NCBI GenBank assembly: GCA_949285905.1
Contig: CASDZV010000063.1
Span: 5,050 to 69,049, forward strand
DNA from: an uncultured Spirochaetales bacterium
Lineage (GTDB): Bacteria; Spirochaetota; Spirochaetia; Sphaerochaetales; Sphaerochaetaceae
Direction of reading: 5' to 3'
Length of the DNA stretch: 64,000 nt
Part shown: one piece after another, positions 7,124 through 61,913 of the stretch
Position numbering within the stretch: position 1 is the first letter of the stretch
How the letters are laid out: each line of letters begins with the position of its first letter
The notes under the pieces: model-generated
Told to the model about the DNA's origin: nothing
The model's input: the letters and a program-made list of their open reading frames with translations, nothing else
The model's database searches: none
Position numbers and translations under genes: made by a program

Positions 7124-7427
7124 GATTCTGATGATTGTCCTCTGCGCAGGTGCAACACTTCTTCCTCGCATCATCCCATTTTTCGCATCCTCAGCTCTTT
7201 CAAAGCTTCCGAAGTTCATACGCAAATGCATGATGCTGCTTCCAGTCGCAGCTCTTGGTGCTCTTATCTTCCCGCTCTCTCTCACAGATTTCGGCACAGA
7301 GTGGTATGCAGGACTTGCAGGTGTTGCTGTCGCGTTCATAACATCGCTTCTCAGAGGTCCGATGATTCTCTCAATCATCCTTGCCCTTGTCTCTACAGCA
7401 GGAGTTCTCCTGGTGTTTCCGATGTGA
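7116..7427 (+). CDS. azlD: AzlD-family small membrane protein
   Basis: 103 aa hydrophobic protein that overlaps the azlC stop. This is the canonical azlCD arrangement. Confidence 0.65.
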   Translation: MNKILMIVLCAGATLLPRIIPFFASSALSKLPKFIRKCMMLLPVAALGALIFPLSLTDFGTEWYAGLAGVAVAFITSLLRGPMILSIILALVSTAGVLLVFPM

Positions 7428-7653
7428 AAAGCAGGGTGAAGCCGCTTCCGATCTTCTTGTCCTTTTAATAAAGCGTAATCTTTGCTTTGCGTGTCATCTG
7501 ATTGGATTTCAGTGAAGATTGTAATCATGGGAGAAGTGCATAGTGAATTCAGTATAATTAATTAAGATGCAATTCTGTTGCAAACAAATTTATTACAAAC
7601 AACTTTGCTTGTAATAATACTGTGAAATGCTATTATTACCTCAAGGAGTGAAT

Positions 7654-9027
7654 ATGAAATTCATTGGCAGAGAGAAAGAGCTGAAAGTGATAAGAGATAC
7701 GCTGAACGACGATAATGCAAAAGCTCTGCTTGTGTATGGCAGACGGAGGATGGGGAAGACTACGCTTATTAAGGAAGCTGTGAAGGATCTCGATGCTGTC
7801 AAAATCATATACAAAGGGAAGATTCAGCCGATTGCCAGATCTATAGAAGAGCTGTCTGTGATGATAACCAGAGCTATTGGTCTTGGGGATATCCCATTGC
7901 CATCTTTTGAGGCAATCTTTTCACTGCTGAGGAACAGGCATGAATGCTTTGTGATAGTCCTCGATGAATATCAGGATATGAAGAAGATAGAAGGGGAAGC
8001 AGTAGATGCTCTTATAAGGAATGCTATGGAAGATATGAGCGAGAATATAAAGCTTATTATCTCCGGATCTTCAATCAGGATGATGGATGCCTTGACGCGG
8101 AGTGATAATCCTCTTTATGGGCGATTCAAAGCACAGGTTCTTGTCGATGAAATGGATTATTATGACTCTGCAAAATTCTACCCGTCATATACGGTGAGAG
8201 ACAGAATCATACTTTACAGTGTATTCGGAGGAATTCCATGGATTAATGAATCCATTGATTCTGAACTCAGCGTTAAGGATAATATCATCAAGCTGCTTTT
8301 TGAGAATAAAGGGCTTGCAAGGGCTTATGTGGAAGATGTCATCAATGTTGAGTGTTCGCAGATAAACTACTCAACAGAAATTTTCCGCTGTATCCGCAAT
8401 GGGAAGAAACATTTTTCGGAAATCCAGTCTTATATCAGCATCCCGTCAATCAGGACGCAATTGACAAGAGTCATTAAGAATATGATGGATGTTTCATTGA
8501 TAAAAAGAAGATTTCCAATCAATTCTAAATCAGCCAAGACTGCTTTCTATGAGATTTCCAGCAATGTGGTACGTTTCTATTTTGCTTATCAGAATGCGAT
8601 AAACGATGAGAATGCCTTCAATCTGGACGCTCTCTATCAATGCGCTGTTGAACCAACCCTGAATACATTTGTCAGCTATCGATTTGAAGAGATTGCCCGC
8701 TCTTATTTCATCAGGTTGTCAATGAGTGGGAAAAGAGGAGGGATCCTTAGCGCTGGGACATACTGGTTCGATGATAGGAAAAAGCGTCAGAATGGAGAGT
8801 TCGATGTTGCGTTGCTGCTGACTGATGGTACATATGAAATCTATGAATGCAAATTTCTGAAGTATAAAGCAGATAAGCGCATGGTGTTGGAAGAGAAGGC
8901 CAAGGTTGATCAGGCTCCACTGGTCGGGGTGAGGAAATTCGGAATGATTTCATCTTCCGGTTTTGAATGCAATGCAATAGATGATGTGATATTGATCAGT
9001 GGTGATGATCTCTACACATTGTCGTGA
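7654..9027 (+). CDS. ATPase of the archaeal-ATPase/DUF234 family (intact paralog)
   Basis: AAGGAG RBS 5 nt before the ATG at 7654. The N-terminus is FIGREKELKVIRDTL...LLVYGRRRMGKTTL (Walker A), Walker B is VIVLDEYQ, and the C-terminal region RFEEIARSYF...GEFDVAL is typical of the DUF234 module. Confidence 0.8.
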   Translation: MKFIGREKELKVIRDTLNDDNAKALLVYGRRRMGKTTLIKEAVKDLDAVKIIYKGKIQPIARSIEELSVMITRAIGLGDIPLPSFEAIFSLLRNRHECFVIVLDEYQDMKKIEGEAVDALIRNAMEDMSENIKLIISGSSIRMMDALTRSDNPLYGRFKAQVLVDEMDYYDSAKFYPSYTVRDRIILYSVFGGIPWINESIDSELSVKDNIIKLLFENKGLARAYVEDVINVECSQINYSTEIFRCIRNGKKHFSEIQSYISIPSIRTQLTRVIKNMMDVSLIKRRFPINSKSAKTAFYEISSNVVRFYFAYQNAINDENAFNLDALYQCAVEPTLNTFVSYRFEEIARSYFIRLSMSGKRGGILSAGTYWFDDRKKRQNGEFDVALLLTDGTYEIYECKFLKYKADKRMVLEEKAKVDQAPLVGVRKFGMISSSGFECNAIDDVILISGDDLYTLS

Positions 9028-26644: not shown

Positions 26645-27805
26645 ATGTATACTCTAAAGCAGAGACTCGAAAACGAATATTATATTGAGGTGCGATACAC
26701 CAGAATTAGATATCCAAAGGATGGGGCATCTCCATATATTTTAAAAGACAATTTTGGGAAAAAGGACCTAGATCCAGATAACAAAAGATTCGTCATAGAT
26801 CAATTGTTTAAGGGTAAAATAGAAAAATGCAAAGAATTGGAATACGACGGTATTCAATATAAAGTCGATTTCGTAGAAGGAAAGGTAATCAGAATCTGGA
26901 ATCCAGAAAAATGCGAAGTCTACGAGTGCAAGTTTATTACTAGCTATCTGAACAAAATTGATGAAATAATCAAAATCAGTACCGATAAAAAAGTATATTT
27001 CCGGGGGCAGTCGTCAATACAAGACTGGCTTCCATCACTCTACAGGAAGACGCAGTGGGTTGAAAGTGAATACAAATTAAACTTGAATGTTCTCTCAAAG
27101 CATGTGGATGAGTTTAAAGATTGTAAAACTACTATAGAGAAATTAATAAAGCTCAAGCATTATAATCAGCCATCACGTCTTCTTGATATTGTTGCTAATC
27201 CTCTCATGGCTCTTTACTTTGCAGCAGATAACAGTGGAAATACAGGATTACCGGGTGCTGTAGCAGCTGTTTTTTCTGATCCGCGTAAGGAAAAATATAC
27301 CCTCAATAGTGACACAGTACTGCTTTTAGCAAATCTTTCAAATGTGGACTTTTCGGAATATTGGTGCATGAATGACAAAAATAAAGCATTACATAAGAAC
27401 GAATGCGGGAAGAATAATGATTATTTTTCCGAATTAGGGCATCAATGTAGAGTTGAATCAGGAATTGATAGTTATTTCGATAATCTGGGTAAGAATGAGA
27501 CAACATCAAACAGCGAGACATCAAAATGTATCATCATACGTCCGGAAATGAATAATCCTCGGATAATACAGCAACAGGGGCTATTTCTTTTATGTGGTTT
27601 TGATTATAACCAGCATTTAACTCTTCCATTAAGGGAATACAACAGCTTTTTTGAAGACAGTAATGGCAAAAGGGTATATTTCGTATTTTCTACAAGGACA
27701 ATGAAAATAATTAAGCAACAGCTTGCCACATATGGGATAAATAAAAGCCAAGTTTACTTTGACCTTGAGAAAACTATTGAATATGAAAGAGAGAATTGTC
27801 TTTGA
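26645..27805 (+). CDS. FRG-domain protein
   Basis: 386 aa. KKVYFRGQSSIQDWLPSLYR matches the (F/Y)RG signature that names the FRG domain, followed by LKHYNQPSRLLDIVANPLMALYFA and PRIIQQQGLFLL. Confidence 0.7.
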   Translation: MYTLKQRLENEYYIEVRYTRIRYPKDGASPYILKDNFGKKDLDPDNKRFVIDQLFKGKIEKCKELEYDGIQYKVDFVEGKVIRIWNPEKCEVYECKFITSYLNKIDEIIKISTDKKVYFRGQSSIQDWLPSLYRKTQWVESEYKLNLNVLSKHVDEFKDCKTTIEKLIKLKHYNQPSRLLDIVANPLMALYFAADNSGNTGLPGAVAAVFSDPRKEKYTLNSDTVLLLANLSNVDFSEYWCMNDKNKALHKNECGKNNDYFSELGHQCRVESGIDSYFDNLGKNETTSNSETSKCIIIRPEMNNPRIIQQQGLFLLCGFDYNQHLTLPLREYNSFFEDSNGKRVYFVFSTRTMKIIKQQLATYGINKSQVYFDLEKTIEYERENCL

Positions 27806-28111
27806 TTAACAAAGAAGCTTGTTAAATTAGCGATTGCATGTTGCGAATGAAATAGGACAGGTGGGCGTTGAAACGGACAGTATCTGCGGAGGGCAAGGCC
27901 AACCGCAGATGAGAAGGATCTCACTTTTCTTTTGAAACGACTACAAGGAAAGAGCCTTGTTGCCAATACGACATAATAAGGCTGTTGATACAGTATGAGG
28001 TTAGGTCTGTTTCTTTGCTCCTTTCGTATTTATGAGATAACTCCTTAATATCATAAGAGCTAAAAATTCTGAATTTTAAATACAGAATTTGCATATAATT
28101 TGCAAATTCGT

Positions 28112-28141
28112 TTGACAAAACCAAAATTATGCACATATTAT
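28112..28141 (+). promoter_or_regulatory. sigma70-like promoter for the ATPase cassette
   Basis: TTGACA (28112-28117), an 18 nt spacer, then TATTAT (28136-28141), 17 nt upstream of the ATG at 28159. It is preceded by a duplicated aatttgca motif. Confidence 0.4.
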
Positions 28142-28158
28142 TCCTTTGAGGGGAAAGA

Positions 28159-29397
28159 ATGTTACTGGAATTTACCTGTTCTAACCACAAATCAATAAAA
28201 GACAAAGTCGTGTTCTCTATGATTGCTGGAAGTGACAAGACCTTTGATGAATATCTTAAAGATATCGGATCTCATAAAGTGCTCCGTTCAGCTGTGATAT
28301 ATGGTCCCAATGGATCAGGGAAGAGCAATTTCATTAATGCTCTTGCTTTTGTAAGCAGCTTAGTTGCTACTAGCATAAACAATCAGCCAGGGCAGGGTGT
28401 TTATCAATCAAGGCATAAGCTGAGTGCGGAGGATACTCCTAGTGAATATACAATACAGTTTATACATGATGGGATAAGATATGCATATGGCTTTTATGTT
28501 GTGAAGAATAAGATTGATACTGAATATTTGTATTCTTTTCCTAAGGGAAGGCAGCTTAAGATATTTGAGCGATCTGGTCTTTCGGTAAAGCCAGGAGACA
28601 GATATAAATCAGATTTTGAATTAAGCACCACGATACTCAAGGATAATCGATTGTTTTTGTCATGCGCTGCAAATTACAGTAACGTGAAGGAGATAGAGGG
28701 CGCCTTTTTCTTCTTTTCCAAGGAAATGGTTGTTTATAACCCTGAGATTAATAATTGGACAGAGTATTCAATATCCTTGATGCAGAATGATGAGCAGATG
28801 AAAAGATTATTCATCAGCATACTCCAGTCACTGGGAACAGGAATAATAGATATAAGAGCTAAGTTGGAGAGTGTCAAATTATCTGATTTCCCGCAGCATG
28901 ATCAGCTGCCTGTTGCACTTAGGGATCTGATAGGAAATAAAGATCTTAATAAGATTGAGGCTAAAGTCATATATGATCAATTTGAAATTGATTTGATGAC
29001 AGAAGAGTCTGAAGGCATTAAAAGACTCTTTCAGATGATATGTCCTATCATTGATATTCTCAGTACGGGCAAGATCTTAATTTGTGATGAAATAGAATCA
29101 AGCCTGCATGAATCTATAGTATCGCAGATTGTACAGATGTTCCGCGACTATAAAAAGGATGCTTCCGCTCAGCTTATTTTCTCAACACATGATACCAGTC
29201 TTCTTGATCTGGATTTGTTCCGGCGGGATCAGATATGGTTCACTCAATTGAAGGATGATCGTTCAACTGATTTGTATTCCCTTGCGGAGGTGAGAAATGT
29301 CCGTAAATCCGAGAATATAGCTAAAGGTTATATCTCTGGAAAGTATGGAGCCATTCCGATGCTCAACAAATCATTCTTTGAGAATCTGGATAATTGA
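28159..29397 (+). CDS. ABC/SMC-like AAA ATPase (AAA_15/AAA_21-type)
   Basis: Walker A is IYGPNGSGKSNF, Walker B is ILICDEIESSLHESIV and the H-loop is IFSTHDTSLLD. The long insertion between Walker A and Walker B is typical of defence-associated ABC-like ATPases. Confidence 0.8.
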   Translation: MLLEFTCSNHKSIKDKVVFSMIAGSDKTFDEYLKDIGSHKVLRSAVIYGPNGSGKSNFINALAFVSSLVATSINNQPGQGVYQSRHKLSAEDTPSEYTIQFIHDGIRYAYGFYVVKNKIDTEYLYSFPKGRQLKIFERSGLSVKPGDRYKSDFELSTTILKDNRLFLSCAANYSNVKEIEGAFFFFSKEMVVYNPEINNWTEYSISLMQNDEQMKRLFISILQSLGTGIIDIRAKLESVKLSDFPQHDQLPVALRDLIGNKDLNKIEAKVIYDQFEIDLMTEESEGIKRLFQMICPIIDILSTGKILICDEIESSLHESIVSQIVQMFRDYKKDASAQLIFSTHDTSLLDLDLFRRDQIWFTQLKDDRSTDLYSLAEVRNVRKSENIAKGYISGKYGAIPMLNKSFFENLDN

Positions 29398-29417
29398 TTT
29401 CACTCGAGTGGGGGACA

Positions 29418-29921
29418 ATGATGGCTGAAAGGAATCTGGAATTATCATCTAGGAAAGAGGCCTGCCGAAATAAGGTTGCGGCAAATGTAATAAGGTTTGA
29501 TCTTAATCAGATACTGGGCCATTTCTCTGAGACTGCTTCAGCAATTAAAACTCAATTTGCTATTGCTGATGAATTGCAGGGTCTTGGTAAGGTAACAGAA
29601 GCTGAGTACATATGGAGAGCACAGATTATCTTTCTTGCTGGTGCCTTGGATTTCTATATGCATGAGCTGACAAAATTCGGACTCTGCGAGATTTATGACA
29701 ATAAATGGGACGAAACTGATAAATATAACAACATCATGATTCCAATGGAAGTTTTGGTAAAAGCTCTAAAAGGCGGAGAAGAAGCAGATTGGTTTCTTGA
29801 ATATATCAATAGCTATTTTCAAGCAGTAACTATGGTTTCCAATGACTCGATAAAATCGCAGTTTAATCTTTTGGGTATCAATTATCGGAATGTTGCAGAC
29901 AAAGCGTTTTATCAACAGTGA
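29418..29921 (+). CDS. hypothetical alpha-helical protein (possible N-terminal part of a HEPN-like protein)
   Basis: GGGGGA RBS, then the ATG at 29418. 167 aa with no recognisable motif. Its TGA overlaps the GTG of the next ORF (GTGA). Confidence 0.55.
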   Translation: MMAERNLELSSRKEACRNKVAANVIRFDLNQILGHFSETASAIKTQFAIADELQGLGKVTEAEYIWRAQIIFLAGALDFYMHELTKFGLCEIYDNKWDETDKYNNIMIPMEVLVKALKGGEEADWFLEYINSYFQAVTMVSNDSIKSQFNLLGINYRNVADKAFYQQ

Positions 29922-56378: not shown

Positions 56379-57893
56379 ATGGACAACAGAATAAAATCAC
56401 TGAAGATGGAGCACATCACCAAGCGTTTTCCAGGTGTGCTCGCCTCCGATGATATCTCAATAAGCGTAGGAGAGGGGGAAGTTCTAGCACTCGTTGGTGA
56501 GAACGGTGCTGGAAAGACTACGCTTATGAATATCCTGATGGGTCTTTATCAGCCGGATGAAGGCCAGATTCTCATAAATGATAAGCCTGTCCATTTCCGC
56601 GGACCTGAGGATGCATTCCGTGCAGGGCTGGGAATGGTGCACCAGACATATATGCTGGTTTCAAATCTGACGGTGACTGAGAATGTCGCTCTGGGGTACA
56701 GAAATGCCGGGGAGAAGCGTTTCAATCTCAAGGCTGTCCGCAGCCGCATTGAGGAAATCTCATCGCGCTATGGTCTTGCTGTAAACCCTGATGCATATAT
56801 ATGGCAGCTCTCTGTCGGTGAGCAGCAGAAGGTCGAGCTTGTTAAGACACTCTGCCTGGGTGCTAAGTTCCTTATACTTGATGAGCCTACATCAGCACTC
56901 ACACCGCAGGAGGTTGATGAACTGATTGTCCTTCTGCACAAGATGGCGAAGGAACTTTCGATTATCTTTATCTCGCACAAGCTTCAGGAAGTGAAGGCTC
57001 TCTCGAATAAAGTCACGATTCTTCGCCATGGCAAGGTTGTCTTCTCTGGAAACACTGATGACTACTCATCGCAGGAAATTGCAGCCAAGATGACAGGACA
57101 TGAGATAGTCCTTCCTCTCAACTGTGGAGAAGCAAAGACAGGTGAGCCTGTTCTTAAACTCGATAACATAACTGTTCTGTCAGACTGGAAGAATCCAGTG
57201 CTGAACAATCTCTCGCTTGAGATAAAAGCCGGAGAGATTGTAGGTCTTGCCGGTGTGTCTGGAAATGGGCAGAGAGAACTTGCTGAAGCTGTGAATGGGC
57301 TGAGGAAGACAGTAAGCGGTAAAATCACGCTGCTTGGCAAGGATATAACGAACAAGACACCTCGTGAGATTATCGATGCAGGTATGGGCTATATACCTGA
57401 AGAACGCAATACAGAAGGAATTGTCCCTCCTTTCTCCATCAAGGAGAATTTCGTTCTCAAGGATATCTCGTCACCGCTTTTCTCATCGCACGCATTCATA
57501 AACGGCAAGAAGGTTGACAGTGCTGCTGAGAAACTGGTCAAGCGTTTTGATGTGCGCTGTCCTGGAATTGAGACTGCTGCAGGGTCTCTCTCGGGTGGAA
57601 ACATCCAGAAGGTCATCCTGGCACGTGAGATTGAGAGAAAGCCTAAGTTCCTTGTCGCTGTCTATCCGACGCGAGGTCTCGACATGGGCGCTGTTGAATT
57701 CATCCATTCGGAGCTTCTTAAGATACGTGAGAGTGGAATAGGTATACTCCTTATCTCAGAAGAGCTTGATGAGATCATCAATCTTTCAGACCGCATCGCA
57801 GTCATCTACAAAGGCTCGATACAGAAGGTTCTGGAAAAGAAAGAAGCAACCAGGGAGCGTCTTGGTATTCTCATGGCAGGAGTAAAAGAATGA
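56379..57893 (+). CDS. ABC transporter ATP-binding protein with two fused ATPase domains
   Basis: GENGAGKTT, LSVGEQQKVE and ILDEPTS are present, then a second domain with GVSGNGQREL and LSGGNIQK. The start is uncertain (TTG 56364, ATG 56379 or ATG 56406). Confidence 0.85.
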   Translation: MDNRIKSLKMEHITKRFPGVLASDDISISVGEGEVLALVGENGAGKTTLMNILMGLYQPDEGQILINDKPVHFRGPEDAFRAGLGMVHQTYMLVSNLTVTENVALGYRNAGEKRFNLKAVRSRIEEISSRYGLAVNPDAYIWQLSVGEQQKVELVKTLCLGAKFLILDEPTSALTPQEVDELIVLLHKMAKELSIIFISHKLQEVKALSNKVTILRHGKVVFSGNTDDYSSQEIAAKMTGHEIVLPLNCGEAKTGEPVLKLDNITVLSDWKNPVLNNLSLEIKAGEIVGLAGVSGNGQRELAEAVNGLRKTVSGKITLLGKDITNKTPREIIDAGMGYIPEERNTEGIVPPFSIKENFVLKDISSPLFSSHAFINGKKVDSAAEKLVKRFDVRCPGIETAAGSLSGGNIQKVILAREIERKPKFLVAVYPTRGLDMGAVEFIHSELLKIRESGIGILLISEELDEIINLSDRIAVIYKGSIQKVLEKKEATRERLGILMAGVKE

Positions 57894-58975
57894 CAAAGGG
57901 TTTCCGTATTGCTTTCAAAGTCTCGATTATCGCAATTGCGGCCATTGCTGCAATATTGATGGCCTCTGTAATACTCTGGGTAATCGGAGCAAATGTCACT
58001 GACACGTTCTATACAATCGTATTTGAGCCTCTTACAAATATGCTGCATATCTCCGAGGTCCTGATCAGAGCTATTCCGCTCTGCATCATCGCACTCGGTA
58101 TCTCTGTAGCTTATCGTTCCGGGATTATAAATATCGGAGCAGAGGGCCAGATGGCGATGGGGCTCATCGCGTTTACTGGTGTGGCGCTTGCTTTCCCCGA
58201 TGTGCCACGTCCGTTGCTTCTACCCCTGGCGCTTATTGCTGCAATGATCGGTGGTGGTGTCTGGGGATTTATTCCCGGCATCCTCAAGGCAAAGCTCAAT
58301 GTATCAGAGCTTCTGTCGACTGTCATGCTTAATTACATCGCGGCTCAGTTCTATTCACTCTGTCTCAGGACTATCTACCTCGACCCGGCTGAGCAGGTCT
58401 ATGGCACAGGTACTCCGCAGTCGATGCGTCTTACAGAGAATGTATGGTTCGGCCGTATTACAGGACGCTTGCACTATGGCATCATCATTGCGATTGTCCT
58501 TGCAGTTCTCATCTACATTCTGATGTGGAAGACGACCATGGGCTTCAAAATGAGAGCTGCTGGGTCTGGCGCTAGAGCTGCCAGATATGGCGGTATAAGC
58601 GTAGGGCTTTGTCTTGCAGCTTCCATGGCCATCTCAGGCGCTTTCGCAGGTCTTGCAGGAGGTGTTGAGATTGCTGGTGTGCATCGCCGTGCAATTGAAG
58701 GTATTACCAATAACTACGGCTTCTCTGGTGTTGTCGTGGCACTCTTCGGTGGATTACACCCGTTTGGTATCATACCGGCATCGTTTCTGTTCGGTCTTTT
58801 GATTTACGGATCAACACTTGCGCCTACGATGGTCGGCGTACCTGCAAACATCGTGCAGGTCATGCAGGGTATTATCATTATCGTAATTGTCACGGCACAG
58901 ATGGTGCTCTCTAACGCATATTTTCAGGACAGGGTCTGGAGGAGATACCAGGCACTGAGAAAGAAGGAGGCCTGA
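57890..58975 (+). CDS. ABC transporter permease (BMP/nucleoside-type)
   Basis: 361 aa polytopic protein. ATGA overlap with the ATPase gene. Confidence 0.8.
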   Translation: MTKGFRIAFKVSIIAIAAIAAILMASVILWVIGANVTDTFYTIVFEPLTNMLHISEVLIRAIPLCIIALGISVAYRSGIINIGAEGQMAMGLIAFTGVALAFPDVPRPLLLPLALIAAMIGGGVWGFIPGILKAKLNVSELLSTVMLNYIAAQFYSLCLRTIYLDPAEQVYGTGTPQSMRLTENVWFGRITGRLHYGIIIAIVLAVLIYILMWKTTMGFKMRAAGSGARAARYGGISVGLCLAASMAISGAFAGLAGGVEIAGVHRRAIEGITNNYGFSGVVVALFGGLHPFGIIPASFLFGLLIYGSTLAPTMVGVPANIVQVMQGIIIIVIVTAQMVLSNAYFQDRVWRRYQALRKKEA

Positions 58976-58976
58976 G

Positions 58977-59924
58977 ATGGTTGCTGTTATCACAAATATG
59001 CTTTCAATGTGTATTCCGTTCTCTGTAGCGCTCCTTCTTGCATCAATCGGGGAGATGTTCAATCAGAGAGCAGGTGTATTCAACCTCGGCTGCGAAGGTG
59101 TGATGGCAATGGGCGCTTTTGTCGGAATGCTCATACCTTACATGGCAGGTGGCGGCGGATCTGTATCAGAGTGGTACAATGTTCTAGGCTTTGTTGCGGC
59201 AGCTGTCCTCGGAGCACTTCTCGGCCTTGCATTCGGTGTCATAACTGTGACATTCCGTGCCCCGCAGGGTATTGCAGGAATCGGTCTGCAGATGTTTGGT
59301 GTTGGAACTGCTGGAACGCTCTTCAGACACTTCGTCGGAGGTACACAGTCCATTCCGGGCATTCCTGATTTCGATATCCCGCTGCTTTCAAAGATACCGT
59401 TCTTCGGAGAAGTCTTCTTCTCCCATAACGTGATGGCATATCTTGCATACATTCTTGTTCCTGTAGCTTGGTATGTACTCTTCAAGACTTTCTGGGGGCT
59501 CAAGGTAAGGGCAGTGGGAACAAACCCGAGAGCTGCGGATTCGATGGGCATCAATGTCAGCCGTACCCGTTATGAAGCTCTTGCGCTAGGAGGTGCACTT
59601 GCAGGTCTTGCTGGTGCATACCTCTCAATCGCTCAGGCAAAGATGTTCTCCGATTCTCTCATCTCTGGCCGAGGCTTCATCGCTGTCGCGCTTGTTTACT
59701 TCGGACACTGGCATCCTGTGCAGATTATGGGAGGCGCACTTTTATTCACACTGGCCCAGACATTCCAGACAATCGTGCAGAGCATGGGAATATCATTCCC
59801 ATATGAGCTTGCTGTTATGCTTCCATATGTGCTTGTTGTAGTAGTTCTTTCGTTCACTTCACGCAATCAGACTACAGCTCCCACCGCACTTGGAAAGCCT
59901 TTCAACAGGGAAATCAGGACCTGA
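58977..59924 (+). CDS. ABC transporter permease (BMP/nucleoside-type)
   Basis: 315 aa polytopic protein, immediately downstream of the first permease. Confidence 0.8.
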   Translation: MVAVITNMLSMCIPFSVALLLASIGEMFNQRAGVFNLGCEGVMAMGAFVGMLIPYMAGGGGSVSEWYNVLGFVAAAVLGALLGLAFGVITVTFRAPQGIAGIGLQMFGVGTAGTLFRHFVGGTQSIPGIPDFDIPLLSKIPFFGEVFFSHNVMAYLAYILVPVAWYVLFKTFWGLKVRAVGTNPRAADSMGINVSRTRYEALALGGALAGLAGAYLSIAQAKMFSDSLISGRGFIAVALVYFGHWHPVQIMGGALLFTLAQTFQTIVQSMGISFPYELAVMLPYVLVVVVLSFTSRNQTTAPTALGKPFNREIRT

Positions 59925-59930
59925 CAATAT

Positions 59931-59960
59931 GCAGGCTGCTCTTTGTCGGCAGCCTGCTTT
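59931..59960 (+). terminator. rho-independent terminator
   Basis: gcaggctgc / gcagcctgc 9 bp stem followed by ttta. Confidence 0.65.
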
Positions 59961-60055
59961 ATGCAGATCTATGCCTATTTTTGATATTGTTTGATAGATA
60001 TTTCATAGATTTCCAATGAATGGCTTTCTAGGAAAAAATCTGGTAATATTATTTT

Positions 60056-61315
60056 ATGAAGTTATATCTGAAAAATATTGGTAAGATTGAGAACTGTGAA
60101 ATAGAAATCAATGGCATTTCCATTATTGCAGGTGTAAACAACACTGGTAAAAGTACGGTCGGACGTTCCCTTTTTGCCATATTCAATGGTTTTCATGCTA
60201 TTCAAAATCAGATTATAGAAGAACGAATATCTAGCATAGAGAATATTCTTGATAGGTTGGCATTCAGGGGCAGAATTTCTGATATACATCGTATGCATAA
60301 TCTTGCCCAATCTATCATTCAGGAAAATATAAATGACGCAGAATTGCTTAAACAAAATATTCTTGATTACTTTGCAGAGTATGAAAAGACTGTGGATGAT
60401 TTAATTGAGGAAGATCTGCTGAACAAAACTATATTAAGAATTAAAGAAGTTCTTGGTATTGACGACAGCACGCTGCTTAAGACTATTTTGTCAAAGCGAC
60501 TGAATGGCGAATTCAATGGACAGATTTCAAATATCTTCAATGATAATGGGAGTGAAATATCTCTTGAGATAGCTCATGAACGAATCACAACATTTATTTC
60601 TGACAATAAAGTTTTTGATGTGTACAATCCCAGTAATATTTCTCTTCACACAGAAGCAATTTACATCGATGATCCGTTTGTTCTGGATGAATCAGCAGGG
60701 GAAGGATTCTATTATCGAATGTTTACAATGCATGATCATAGGAATGTTCTTCGACAGAAATTAGTGGAAAGTCTCCGGAGTGGGAATATAGTTGATGAAA
60801 TTATCGCTGAAAATAAGTTGGACAGTATTTATCAGAAAATTTCACAAGCATGTGATGGGGATATTGTACGCAACAAAATCGGCATTGGATATAGAAAGCG
60901 GAATGACGATAAAACACTGTATATCCGCAATCTTTCCACTGGAATGAAAACCTTTGCGATTTTAAAGACTCTTCTGATTAATGGAATTGTTGAGGAGAAT
61001 GGAACGATTATCCTTGATGAACCAGAGATTCACTTGCATCCAGAATGGCAGCTACTGTTTGCAGAGCTTATTGTATTGCTTTGCAAAGAATTTGGATTGC
61101 ACATATTGATGAATACACATAGTCCGTATTTCCTGCGAGCAATTCAGGTATATTCAGGAGTCTATTCAGTTGCAGACAAATGCCGATATTATCTTTCAGA
61201 AGCAGATAGTGGAAAAGCCATTATATCTGATGTAACTGGCGATATTGAAAGAATATACGCAAAGCTTTCTGCTCCTCTTCAGCATCTGGAAGACGTGAGG
61301 TGGCATGATGATTAA
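60056..61315 (+). CDS. ABC/SMC-like AAA ATPase (AAA_15/AAA_21-type)
   Basis: Walker A is IIAGVNNTGKSTVG, Walker B is IILDEPEIHLHPEWQ and the H-loop is LMNTHSPYFL, with a ~270 aa helical insertion between them. Confidence 0.8.
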   Translation: MKLYLKNIGKIENCEIEINGISIIAGVNNTGKSTVGRSLFAIFNGFHAIQNQIIEERISSIENILDRLAFRGRISDIHRMHNLAQSIIQENINDAELLKQNILDYFAEYEKTVDDLIEEDLLNKTILRIKEVLGIDDSTLLKTILSKRLNGEFNGQISNIFNDNGSEISLEIAHERITTFISDNKVFDVYNPSNISLHTEAIYIDDPFVLDESAGEGFYYRMFTMHDHRNVLRQKLVESLRSGNIVDEIIAENKLDSIYQKISQACDGDIVRNKIGIGYRKRNDDKTLYIRNLSTGMKTFAILKTLLINGIVEENGTIILDEPEIHLHPEWQLLFAELIVLLCKEFGLHILMNTHSPYFLRAIQVYSGVYSVADKCRYYLSEADSGKAIISDVTGDIERIYAKLSAPLQHLEDVRWHDD

Positions 61316-61913
61316 CCTTTGTGATTTTCCTTTATTCCTTCGCCACATGACAACACTGGAAGAATCGTCGATAGATTCAAGCAGTGGTACTCGTATTCCT
61401 ATGATAGTTTCACTTTTTCCTGCAGTGAACTTTGATGAAGTGAAGGATGAATATAGTGCAATACACCATATCCCGCAAAAACCAAAATCAAATGATGCTT
61501 TAATGGAGGATGGTCGAGGGAATTTGGTATTTGTGGAATTCAAGAACTGCAAGATTGATAAGCCTCTGCAATATGAATTGCGTAAAAAGATATATGACAG
61601 TCTCCTTATTTTCTCAGATATCACATCAGAAACATTGTCTTATACGCGGACTGCCTTGAAGTATTGTTTAGTCTATAATGAAACGGAAAACTACAACAAT
61701 CTGACAGATGATGAATTAATTGAAAAGAATAAAGCTGTTCAGAATTCTTTTTCCTATGACAAGATTGCAAAGACATTCCTTGATTTTGCAAATAAGGAAT
61801 ATATCTGCTTTGGTTTAAAAATGTTTGGAGGTTATTGTTTCAAAGAGGTTCATACATATACGGAATCTGAATTTACAGCCTATATCTCATCATTGGAAAA
61901 CAAAAGGCTCTGA
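61305..61913 (+). CDS. hypothetical protein, possible PD-(D/E)xK nuclease fold
   Basis: 202 aa, overlapping the ATPase gene by 11 nt. SNDALMEDGRGNLVFVEFKNCK gives a D...(E)xK spacing (D64/D69, E78, K80). No other motif is recognised. Confidence 0.55.
   Translation: MMINLCDFPLFLRHMTTLEESSIDSSSGTRIPMIVSLFPAVNFDEVKDEYSAIHHIPQKPKSNDALMEDGRGNLVFVEFKNCKIDKPLQYELRKKIYDSLLIFSDITSETLSYTRTALKYCLVYNETENYNNLTDDELIEKNKAVQNSFSYDKIAKTFLDFANKEYICFGLKMFGGYCFKEVHTYTESEFTAYISSLENKRL

Follow-up and report, generated by a model that had tools for sequence, protein, structure and literature searches.

The subject of this study is an AT-rich islet at positions 59960-61913 of a 64,000-nucleotide stretch of DNA (contig CASDZV010000063.1, called the window below) from an uncultured Spirochaetales bacterium. 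The islet carries two co-oriented open reading frames (ORFs) on the forward strand, 60056-61315 with 419 amino acids (aa) and 61305-61913 with 202 aa in its maximal form, and the module has a size of about 1.85 kb. We will argue that it is probably a self-contained, mobile two-gene module directed against phages or other mobile elements, in which, by analogy with characterized systems, an OLD-type ABC ATPase would act as the sensor and a small PD-(D/E)xK nuclease as the effector. Judged by its sequences, the pair is most likely a distinct relative of the systems HEC-02, PD-T4-4 and WonAB. The architecture as such has already been described and validated as anti-phage for these three, and the sequence family found here appears to be distinct from all of them.

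The small protein as a predicted nuclease

The family of the small protein is large, is without annotation in current family models and is concentrated in gut and oral anaerobes. A word-indexed search yielded 255 homologues, and an exhaustive profile search yielded, at E <= 0.001, 1,419 representative clusters at 50% identity, of which 939 reach <= 1e-10; the best 150 listed are all standalone proteins of 111-234 aa, mostly 180-215. The window protein has no meaningful match in Pfam, NCBIfam, PADLOC (0 at E <= 1), PHROGs or the PDB sequences, and Pfam scans of 53 diverse relatives gave scattered chance matches only. When the same 53 relatives were compared with PADLOC, weak matches to HEC-02B were obtained for nine of them (best 3.7e-6), together with some to Cas4, CARF-PDDEXK, NERD and DruK. 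An earlier sequence-only reading of the window had stated that this ORF has no recognisable family; that is correct for the window protein, but nine of its 53 relatives do have the weak HEC-02B matches.

The segment NDALMEDGRGNLVFVEFKNCK contains the residues D64, E78 and K80, and in it the same reading had seen a possible PD-(D/E)xK signature. This triad is indeed the best-conserved feature of the family. Among the 53 diverse members, whose identity to the window protein is 28-57%, not one lacks D64, E78, S62 or F79, while position 80 is K in 51 members and R in the remaining two. D44 and K95 are nearly as constant, each being kept in 52 of the 53.

The structural model is consistent with this picture. 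The AlphaFold2 (AF2) prediction has a predicted local distance difference test score (pLDDT) of 87 and a predicted template modelling score (pTM) of 0.82, and shows strands at residues 65-68 and 74-80, followed by a helix at 86-107 and a strand at 118-124. D64 is located at the start of the first of these strands and E78-x-K80 inside the second, which is the placement expected of a PD-(D/E)xK core. The structural matches found by Foldseek are weak, the best one being NucS (E = 0.036, template modelling (TM) score 0.20, non-significant) with nothing at E <= 0.001. Nearly all of the top 50 are nevertheless PD-(D/E)xK nucleases, and the list includes NucS/EndoMS, Hachiman HamA, bunyaviral cap-snatching endonucleases, the Avs3 nuclease domain, XPF/Mus81, EcoO109I, BamHI, McrC and Cas4. 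The suggestion of a PD-(D/E)xK core has thus gained from the invariant triad and from the make-up of the weak matches, whereas neither the searches with hidden Markov models (HMMs) nor the structure searches returned a significant match. On the basis of motif and model, we regard the small protein, with fairly high confidence as to both fold and active site, as a nuclease of the PD-(D/E)xK fold that has diverged strongly.

The same residues bear on another possibility, namely that the small protein is an inactive nucleic-acid-binding sensor or adaptor with a restriction-endonuclease (REase) fold, and that the ATPase or a host factor is the effector. There is a precedent in the Menshen protein NsnA, which uses an inactive REase domain as a sensor (PMC12065111), and the lack of a significant structural match to an active nuclease would fit as well. 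However, such domains characteristically lose the D/ExK residues, which in the present family are retained in all 53 members if K and R are both accepted at position 80, and the near-constant D44 and K95 speak against inactivity too. We therefore consider an inactive protein quite improbable.

The ATPase

Its partner is, judged by its motifs and its model, a catalytically competent ABC ATPase with all motifs intact. The three strings that the sequence-only reading had quoted, GVNNTGKST, ILDEPEIHLH and NTHSPYF, are all present and are invariant in an alignment of 34 orthologues with 50-57% identity (see Table 1 for the Walker motifs). Also invariant in this set are Q156, the residues S294, G296 and K298 of the signature region, H355 of the H-loop (within NTHSPYF), and, in a C-terminal helix spanning residues 398-417, Y401, L404, L408, Q409, L411 and E412.

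The proposed ABC/SMC-like identity is supported by Pfam, PADLOC and the fold alike. In Pfam, both AAA_21 (9.5e-19, 69 bits against a cut-off of 27) and AAA_15 (2.5e-16, 60.7 bits against 32.1) are matched above their gathering scores. The PADLOC models matched are PD-T4-4_A (2e-23), HEC-02A (8e-20), NsnB (1.8e-19), AriA (2.7e-19) and PtuA (3.4e-17). Since many defence ATPase models are matched at similar strength, the protein can be placed in the OLD/PtuA-like ABC radiation, but clearly in no single named family. The AF2 model (pLDDT 87, pTM 0.88) was matched by Foldseek to the heads of Rad50 and SMC proteins, to PtuA in the Septu and retron I-A complexes, and to OLD, with E values of 1e-8 to 1e-6, a probability of 1.00 and TM scores of about 0.4-0.56. 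The protein has a helical insert at residues ~49-153 and a C-terminal extension, and it is without a coiled-coil or a zinc hook.

Association of the two genes

The two genes are always adjacent, are translationally coupled and diverge together. A scan of GTDB genomes revealed 65 loci that encode a relative of the small protein, and in all 59 of those with upstream DNA an ATPase orthologue, mostly a full-length match, ends at the start of the small gene. The same order of ATPase and small gene is found in four metagenome contexts and in 6/6 viral contigs from IMG/VR, so that the check on gene-pair conservation proposed along with the sequence-only reading has a clear positive outcome. The identities of the two proteins to their window counterparts co-vary (Spearman 0.71, n = 52). 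The flanking neighbours, 96 proteins at about 50 loci, represent 153 Pfam families, none of which recurs more than four times; there is therefore no conserved third component. At four loci (L045, L059, L065 and L070) the pair is truncated or degraded, with a partial ATPase gene, a partial small gene or both, which indicates decay in some genomes.

The small gene overlaps the end of the ATPase gene, as had been noted, but the overlap is more likely 8 nucleotides (nt), from a start at 61308, than the 11 nt given by the maximal ORF start at 61305. The later start is favoured because alignments with the homologues begin one residue past the second ATG and because the gene pairs of the homologues overlap by 8 nt. 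In one contig that is otherwise nearly identical to the window (L074, small gene at 7425-7991), the public gene call puts the start at M15, corresponding to window position 61347 and a protein of 188 aa. The conserved N-terminus of the homologues favours the upstream start at 61308 over M15.

Comparison with characterized defence systems

We now compare the pair with the three validated systems of the same architecture. The first one, HEC-02 (Hma-embedded candidate 02; Payne et al., bioRxiv 10.1101/2024.01.29.577857), was validated from Dickeya dianthicola, and both of its genes are needed for defence in E. coli. It consists of an ABC ATPase gene followed by an overlapping gene for a 169 aa NERD-like PD-(D/E)xK protein (bioRxiv 10.1101/2024.01.29.577857). 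The islet shares with it the adjacent, co-oriented order of ATPase and small gene, the overlap being 4 nt in the Dickeya pair compared to 8-11 nt here. The window ATPase has 28% identity to the validated Dickeya HEC-02A over 152 C-terminal residues (BLASTP, E = 4e-14), while the HEC-02A model (PDLC04214) matches it at 8e-20 in two partial stretches, a score that other ATPase families reach equally well. There are also clear differences. The window ATPase is 77 residues longer and has a different insert, the small protein of the window has no HEC-02B match, cross HMM searches are marginal, and most hosts are anaerobes of the gut and mouth, not Proteobacteria.

The second system, WonAB, is encoded by the WASA-1 prophage of Vibrio cholerae (Adams et al., Nat Microbiol 2025, PMC12137116). 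Mutation of the Walker A, Walker B or H-loop motifs of WonA, or the K71A mutation of WonB, abolishes defence in each case; inactivation of the ATPase destabilizes WonB, which has been modelled on WonA's dimerized C-terminal extensions (PMC12137116). The outcome is a lysis-independent abortive infection, in which phage DNA replication is not blocked and the DNA is not simply degraded (PMC12137116). As in WonAB, the gene of an OLD-type ABC ATPase precedes one for a small protein, predicted in the islet to be a variant of the PD-(D/E)xK type, whose core reads D-x(~12)-E-x-K, and the two families of small proteins share a layout in which a strand ending in D is followed by xxD and then by hhhEhK(G/N). 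The signatures themselves differ, CDY...VELKG.D..HA..Q for WonB compared to SxDAL...FVEFKNG...KKIYDS for the present family. Between a WonA homologue and the window ATPase, BLASTP aligns just the Walker A and the signature-to-H-loop regions (29% over 84 aa), that is, generic ABC motifs.

WonAB has been related by its authors to an operon of 'OLD-ABC ATPase + novel REase' predicted by Krishnan et al. (NAR 2020); this predicted operon has an exemplar in Anaerovibrio lipolyticus and occurs in 0.96% of genomes (PMC12137116). A pair of the present family is found in Anaerovibrio sp. JC8 (WP_085022515.1 and WP_085022514.1), which belongs to the same genus as the published exemplar. The A. lipolyticus exemplar might thus be a member of the present family; the cluster of the JC8 homologue contains no A. 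lipolyticus entry. Strings diagnostic of the present family were not found among those entries of the hit tables published with WonAB that were examined.

The third system, PD-T4-4 of E. coli, originates from Vassallo et al. 2022 and comprises a PD-(D/E)xK nuclease and a P-loop NTPase that form higher-order complexes (bioRxiv 10.1101/2025.07.10.664194). Its ATPase model gives the best PADLOC match of the window ATPase (2e-23), but this match is partial, and the nuclease model PD-T4-4_B is not matched by any of the 53 members of the small family (E <= 0.05).

In a wider circle of systems, Septu (PtuAB), PARIS (AriAB), Gabija, OLD and AbiL, a nuclease is likewise under the control of an ABC ATPase from the AAA_15/AAA_21 radiation; of these, PtuA and OLD rank among the best structural matches of the window ATPase. 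The effectors of these systems, on the other hand, are not of the PD-(D/E)xK type but HNH (PtuB), Toprim (AriB, GajA, OLD) or RloB-like (AbiLii). A Toprim (DUF4435), HNH or RloB identity of the small protein, as in PARIS, Septu, Gabija or AbiL, was considered and rejected, as neither it nor its relatives have such a match in Pfam or PADLOC.

From these sequence comparisons, the pair appears to lie outside the HEC-02, WonAB and PD-T4-4 families as their models define them; it probably shares a superfamily with them and would act in the same manner. PADLOC v2 would not call it. The resemblance to two-gene ATPase-plus-nuclease defence systems that had been noticed from the letters alone is thus borne out, with the reservation that HEC-02, PD-T4-4 and WonAB make it less novel than was implied. 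As to whether the pair is simply a known named system, there is no PADLOC call and the likeness to HEC-02B and WonB is remote, whereas its architecture is one that has been described before.

Genomic context and mobility

The islet is the lowest-GC stretch of its length in the window and is rivalled only by a cassette at 26-29 kb. Its GC content is 35.1%, to be compared with a mean of 44.8% and a standard deviation of 3.4% for windows of equal length. On the 5' side it is preceded by a nucleoside-type ABC operon encoding a Bmp/PnrA-type substrate-binding protein, a double ABC_tran ATPase and two BPD_transp_2 permeases, and on the 3' side it is followed by an RNA methyltransferase gene of the tRNA_U5-meth_tr family. 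The sequence-only description of an AT-rich islet with two ORFs between the terminator of an ABC operon and an rRNA methyltransferase gene is accordingly accurate as to ORFs, low GC, hairpin and flanks. The hairpin that ends the operon has a calculated folding energy of -23.1 kcal/mol (z = -3.4), and none of 200 shuffled sequences folds equally well; a simple terminator scan does not call it because just three T follow the stem. The coordinates of all features are collected in Table 1.

Table 1. Features in and around the islet, in window coordinates.
Feature	Position	Strand	Description
GC-rich hairpin, 10 bp	59931..59957	+	Ends the Bmp-type ABC transporter operon; left edge of the variable islet
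TGgTAATAT, extended -10-like box	60041..60049	+	6 nt 5' of the ATPase ATG; candidate promoter, putative leaderless transcript
ABC-type ATPase, 419 aa	60056..61315	+	AAA_21/AAA_15; OLD/PtuA/Rad50-like head with helical insert; predicted sensor/regulator subunit
Walker A, GVNNTGKST	60131..60157	+	Residues 26-34, with K32; G26, N28, G31, K32, S33 and T34 invariant (34 orthologues)
Walker B, D321-E322	61016..61021	+	Within ILDEPEIHLH (Walker B + D-loop); invariant (34 orthologues)
GAGGTGG, Shine-Dalgarno sequence of the small gene	61297..61303	+	Within the 3' end of the ATPase gene; spacing fits start 61308
Small protein, 201 aa	61308..61913	+	Predicted PD-(D/E)xK-fold nuclease effector; maximal ORF from 61305
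Predicted catalytic core	61494..61544	+	D64 at 61494-61496; E78-F79-K80 at 61536-61544
Probable right edge of the variable segment	61881..61896	+	16 nt that also form the end of contig L077

The module is foreign in composition, sits at a strain-variable site and is probably horizontally mobile. In the window's own species, an identical islet is present on three contigs. A fourth contig, L077, encodes an identical permease protein and has 97.6% DNA identity to the window over 57820-59959, but the homology stops at 59959. At the site that corresponds to window 59960-61896, this contig has instead a PIN_3/RelB toxin-antitoxin (TA) pair on the opposite strand (L077:2139-2987), which replaces the ATPase and the small gene. 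Its last 16 nt are those listed in the last line of Table 1 and lie in the 3' end of the small gene, which suggests a cassette replacement at a hot spot with a remnant left behind; the remnant, and with it the right edge, is a weak point of the argument because L077 ends there. No empty-site allele was found, PIN/RelB being the only alternative cargo at the site, and neither target-site duplications nor att-like direct repeats were found flanking the islet.

The occupation of the same chromosomal site by a classical TA pair in another strain raises the question of whether the islet could itself be a selfish addiction module, in which the ATPase would restrain the small protein, a toxin, and the pair would stabilize the element or locus carrying it, with no dedicated antiviral role. 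A compact, mobile and compositionally foreign module would fit such a role, the degenerate copies mentioned above are what one sees for dispensable selfish genes, and Pfam names AAA_21 a 'putative AbiEii toxin, type IV TA'. However, this label is a historical name and carries no evidence. All tested systems of this architecture act in phage defence, and no homologue of the pair occurs in 72,556 records of PLSDB plasmids, where addiction modules are typically enriched. The mechanisms of abortive infection and TA overlap, which makes addiction a partial rival to defence, and as a full explanation of the islet we regard it as improbable.

Beyond the window's species, the pair is spread sporadically over Bacillota, Fusobacteriota, Spirochaetota, Desulfobacterota, Saccharibacteria and one Methanosarcinaceae metagenome-assembled genome (MAG). 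The hosts are mainly Lachnospiraceae and other Clostridia, with further copies in Leptotrichia, Treponema, Desulfovibrio, Anaerovibrio and a Saccharibacteria MAG. Copies in distant lineages were seen in the Methanosarcinaceae MAG (L050), the Saccharibacteria MAG (L069) and a 6.4 kb contig of a Bacteroides thetaiotaomicron MAG (L022); these reflect either wide horizontal transfer or else binning contamination of short contigs. Six predicted viral contigs in IMG/VR (L078-L083) carry the pair, and a search with the small protein found a relative of it in a GenBank phage record from human faeces that has no annotation (MT835532.1, L084). Some copies may thus be prophage-borne.

This distribution is also relevant for a possible role in housekeeping or accessory DNA repair, in which the ATPase would be Rad50/RecF-like and the small protein a structure-specific nuclease like NucS/Mus81. 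It is true that Rad50 and SMC heads are among the top fold matches of the ATPase, and NucS/EndoMS and XPF/Mus81 among the top weak matches of the small protein. A repair module would, however, be hard to reconcile with the patchy occurrence, the foreign composition, the variation between strains of one species and the presence on viral contigs. In addition, the coiled-coil and the zinc hook are missing, there are no conserved repair neighbours, and in sequence the ATPase is closest to defence ATPases. A repair function is consequently very unlikely.

Concerning the island context, which had also been proposed for checking, the pair was found in varied and sometimes defence-rich surroundings. 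Of the neighbours in other genomes, a minority belong to defence systems, and these include pAgo-SIR2, Cas6, AbiLi, DRT, CapP/RmrA-like proteins and a type II methyltransferase. At one locus (L005:4657-8597), a PD-T4-4_A-like ATPase (E = 4.5e-37, full length) and a 218 aa protein without a family match are encoded directly upstream of the pair, giving two ATPase-plus-small-protein modules in tandem.

Assessment of the defence assignment

It should be stressed that a number of observations weigh against the reading of the islet as a defence module with a nuclease effector. In spite of the confident model, the Foldseek searches of the small protein against PDB and BFVD returned no significant match (TM 0.2-0.33), and the PD-(D/E)xK assignment therefore rests on the motif and on the make-up of the weak match lists. 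Comparison with the effectors of the validated systems at the level of family profiles does not go much further. With hhalign, the HEC-02B profile gives a probability of 21% over 50 columns around D..ExK, and the profile of WonB/novel REase, built from the sequences in the tables of PMC12137116, gives 22-28% (E = 6e-4 to 1e-3) over 63-66 columns including the motif. Family profiles were used here since a single HEC-02B sequence is uninformative in hhalign (probability 0.9%); both alignments span the D...ExK core and the helix after it. The small protein of the window matches no defence model in PADLOC, most immediate neighbours of the pair are housekeeping or cell-wall polysaccharide genes, so that the enrichment in defence islands appears modest, and the lack of homologues in the PLSDB plasmids noted above also belongs here. 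Finally, the defence role of this family is a prediction from sequence, context and analogy.

With these points taken into account, a mobile two-gene defence module is still the reading that we find probable, and a mechanism can be formulated for it on the model of WonAB, Septu and PARIS. Head-to-head dimers of the ATPase would form around ATP, with its conserved C-terminal helix (residues 398-417) keeping the nuclease inactive in a complex. A cue from the phage would then alter the binding or hydrolysis of ATP, such that the nuclease is activated or released. The nuclease would cleave nucleic acid by means of D64, E78, K80 and a divalent metal, and the infection would be aborted. The substrate could be DNA, as for many PD-(D/E)xK defence nucleases, or it could be RNA or tRNA; the latter is conceivable because WonAB does not simply degrade DNA.

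A more far-reaching proposal would be that the family constitutes a fourth lineage among the ABC-ATPase/mini-REase abortive-infection systems, independent of the others in sequence, that its ~1,400 clusters at 50% identity are concentrated in gut and oral anaerobes and invisible to current defence HMMs, that it targets RNA or tRNA like WonB, AriB and PrrC, and that it is expressed here from a leaderless mRNA. We find this combination possible but doubtful.

If the defence function is confirmed, a large unannotated family (1,419 clusters) would be added to the ABC-ATPase-controlled nucleases, and defence annotation would improve for genomes from human and animal guts, which screens centred on E. 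coli serve poorly. The module would also offer a compact system for studying how one ATPase scaffold pairs with very divergent mini-REase effectors. The conceptual gain would be modest, because the architecture and the abortive-infection logic are established for HEC-02, PD-T4-4 and WonAB.

Expression signals and other features of the window

The ATPase gene has no Shine-Dalgarno sequence within 18 nt of its start, in agreement with what had been read from the letters. The TAATAT hexamer noticed at the same time is located at 60044-60049, and its measured distance to the ATG is 6 nt and not about 9 nt. It is preceded by TG at 60041-60042; a consensus promoter scan does not list this box because no -35 element is present. 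The closest relative (L001) has TATACT, 6 nt and ATG, likewise without a Shine-Dalgarno sequence, while most orthologues have GGAGG. A leaderless ATPase transcript is, on this sequence pattern, plausible.

The pattern is not confined to the islet. A -10-like hexamer at 5-7 nt before the start codon is found for 10 of 44 large ORFs in the window, as compared to 7.2% of all ATGs (binomial P about 0.001), and with a stricter definition of the hexamer for 3/44 compared to 0.8% (P = 0.005). The starts with such a hexamer, usually without a Shine-Dalgarno sequence, include those at 2881 (- strand), 7627, 11603, 16441, 22171, 60056 and 61972, the last one being the methyltransferase gene downstream of the islet with TAATAT, 6 nt and ATG. 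Leaderless expression thus appears to be a trait of the host genome that was taken on by the islet rather than one specific to the module, and leaderless mRNAs may be common in this organism. No RNA element with a credible Rfam match was found within the islet or next to it.

The other AT-rich cassette of the window, at 26645-29921, encodes an FRG-domain protein matching the PADLOC candidate PDC-S15 (26645-27805, E = 1e-53) and an AbiLi ATPase (28159-29397, E = 2e-87). The latter gene overlaps by 4 nt with an ORF of 175 aa (29394-29921) that is probably AbiLii. The contig therefore holds at least three defence-like modules.

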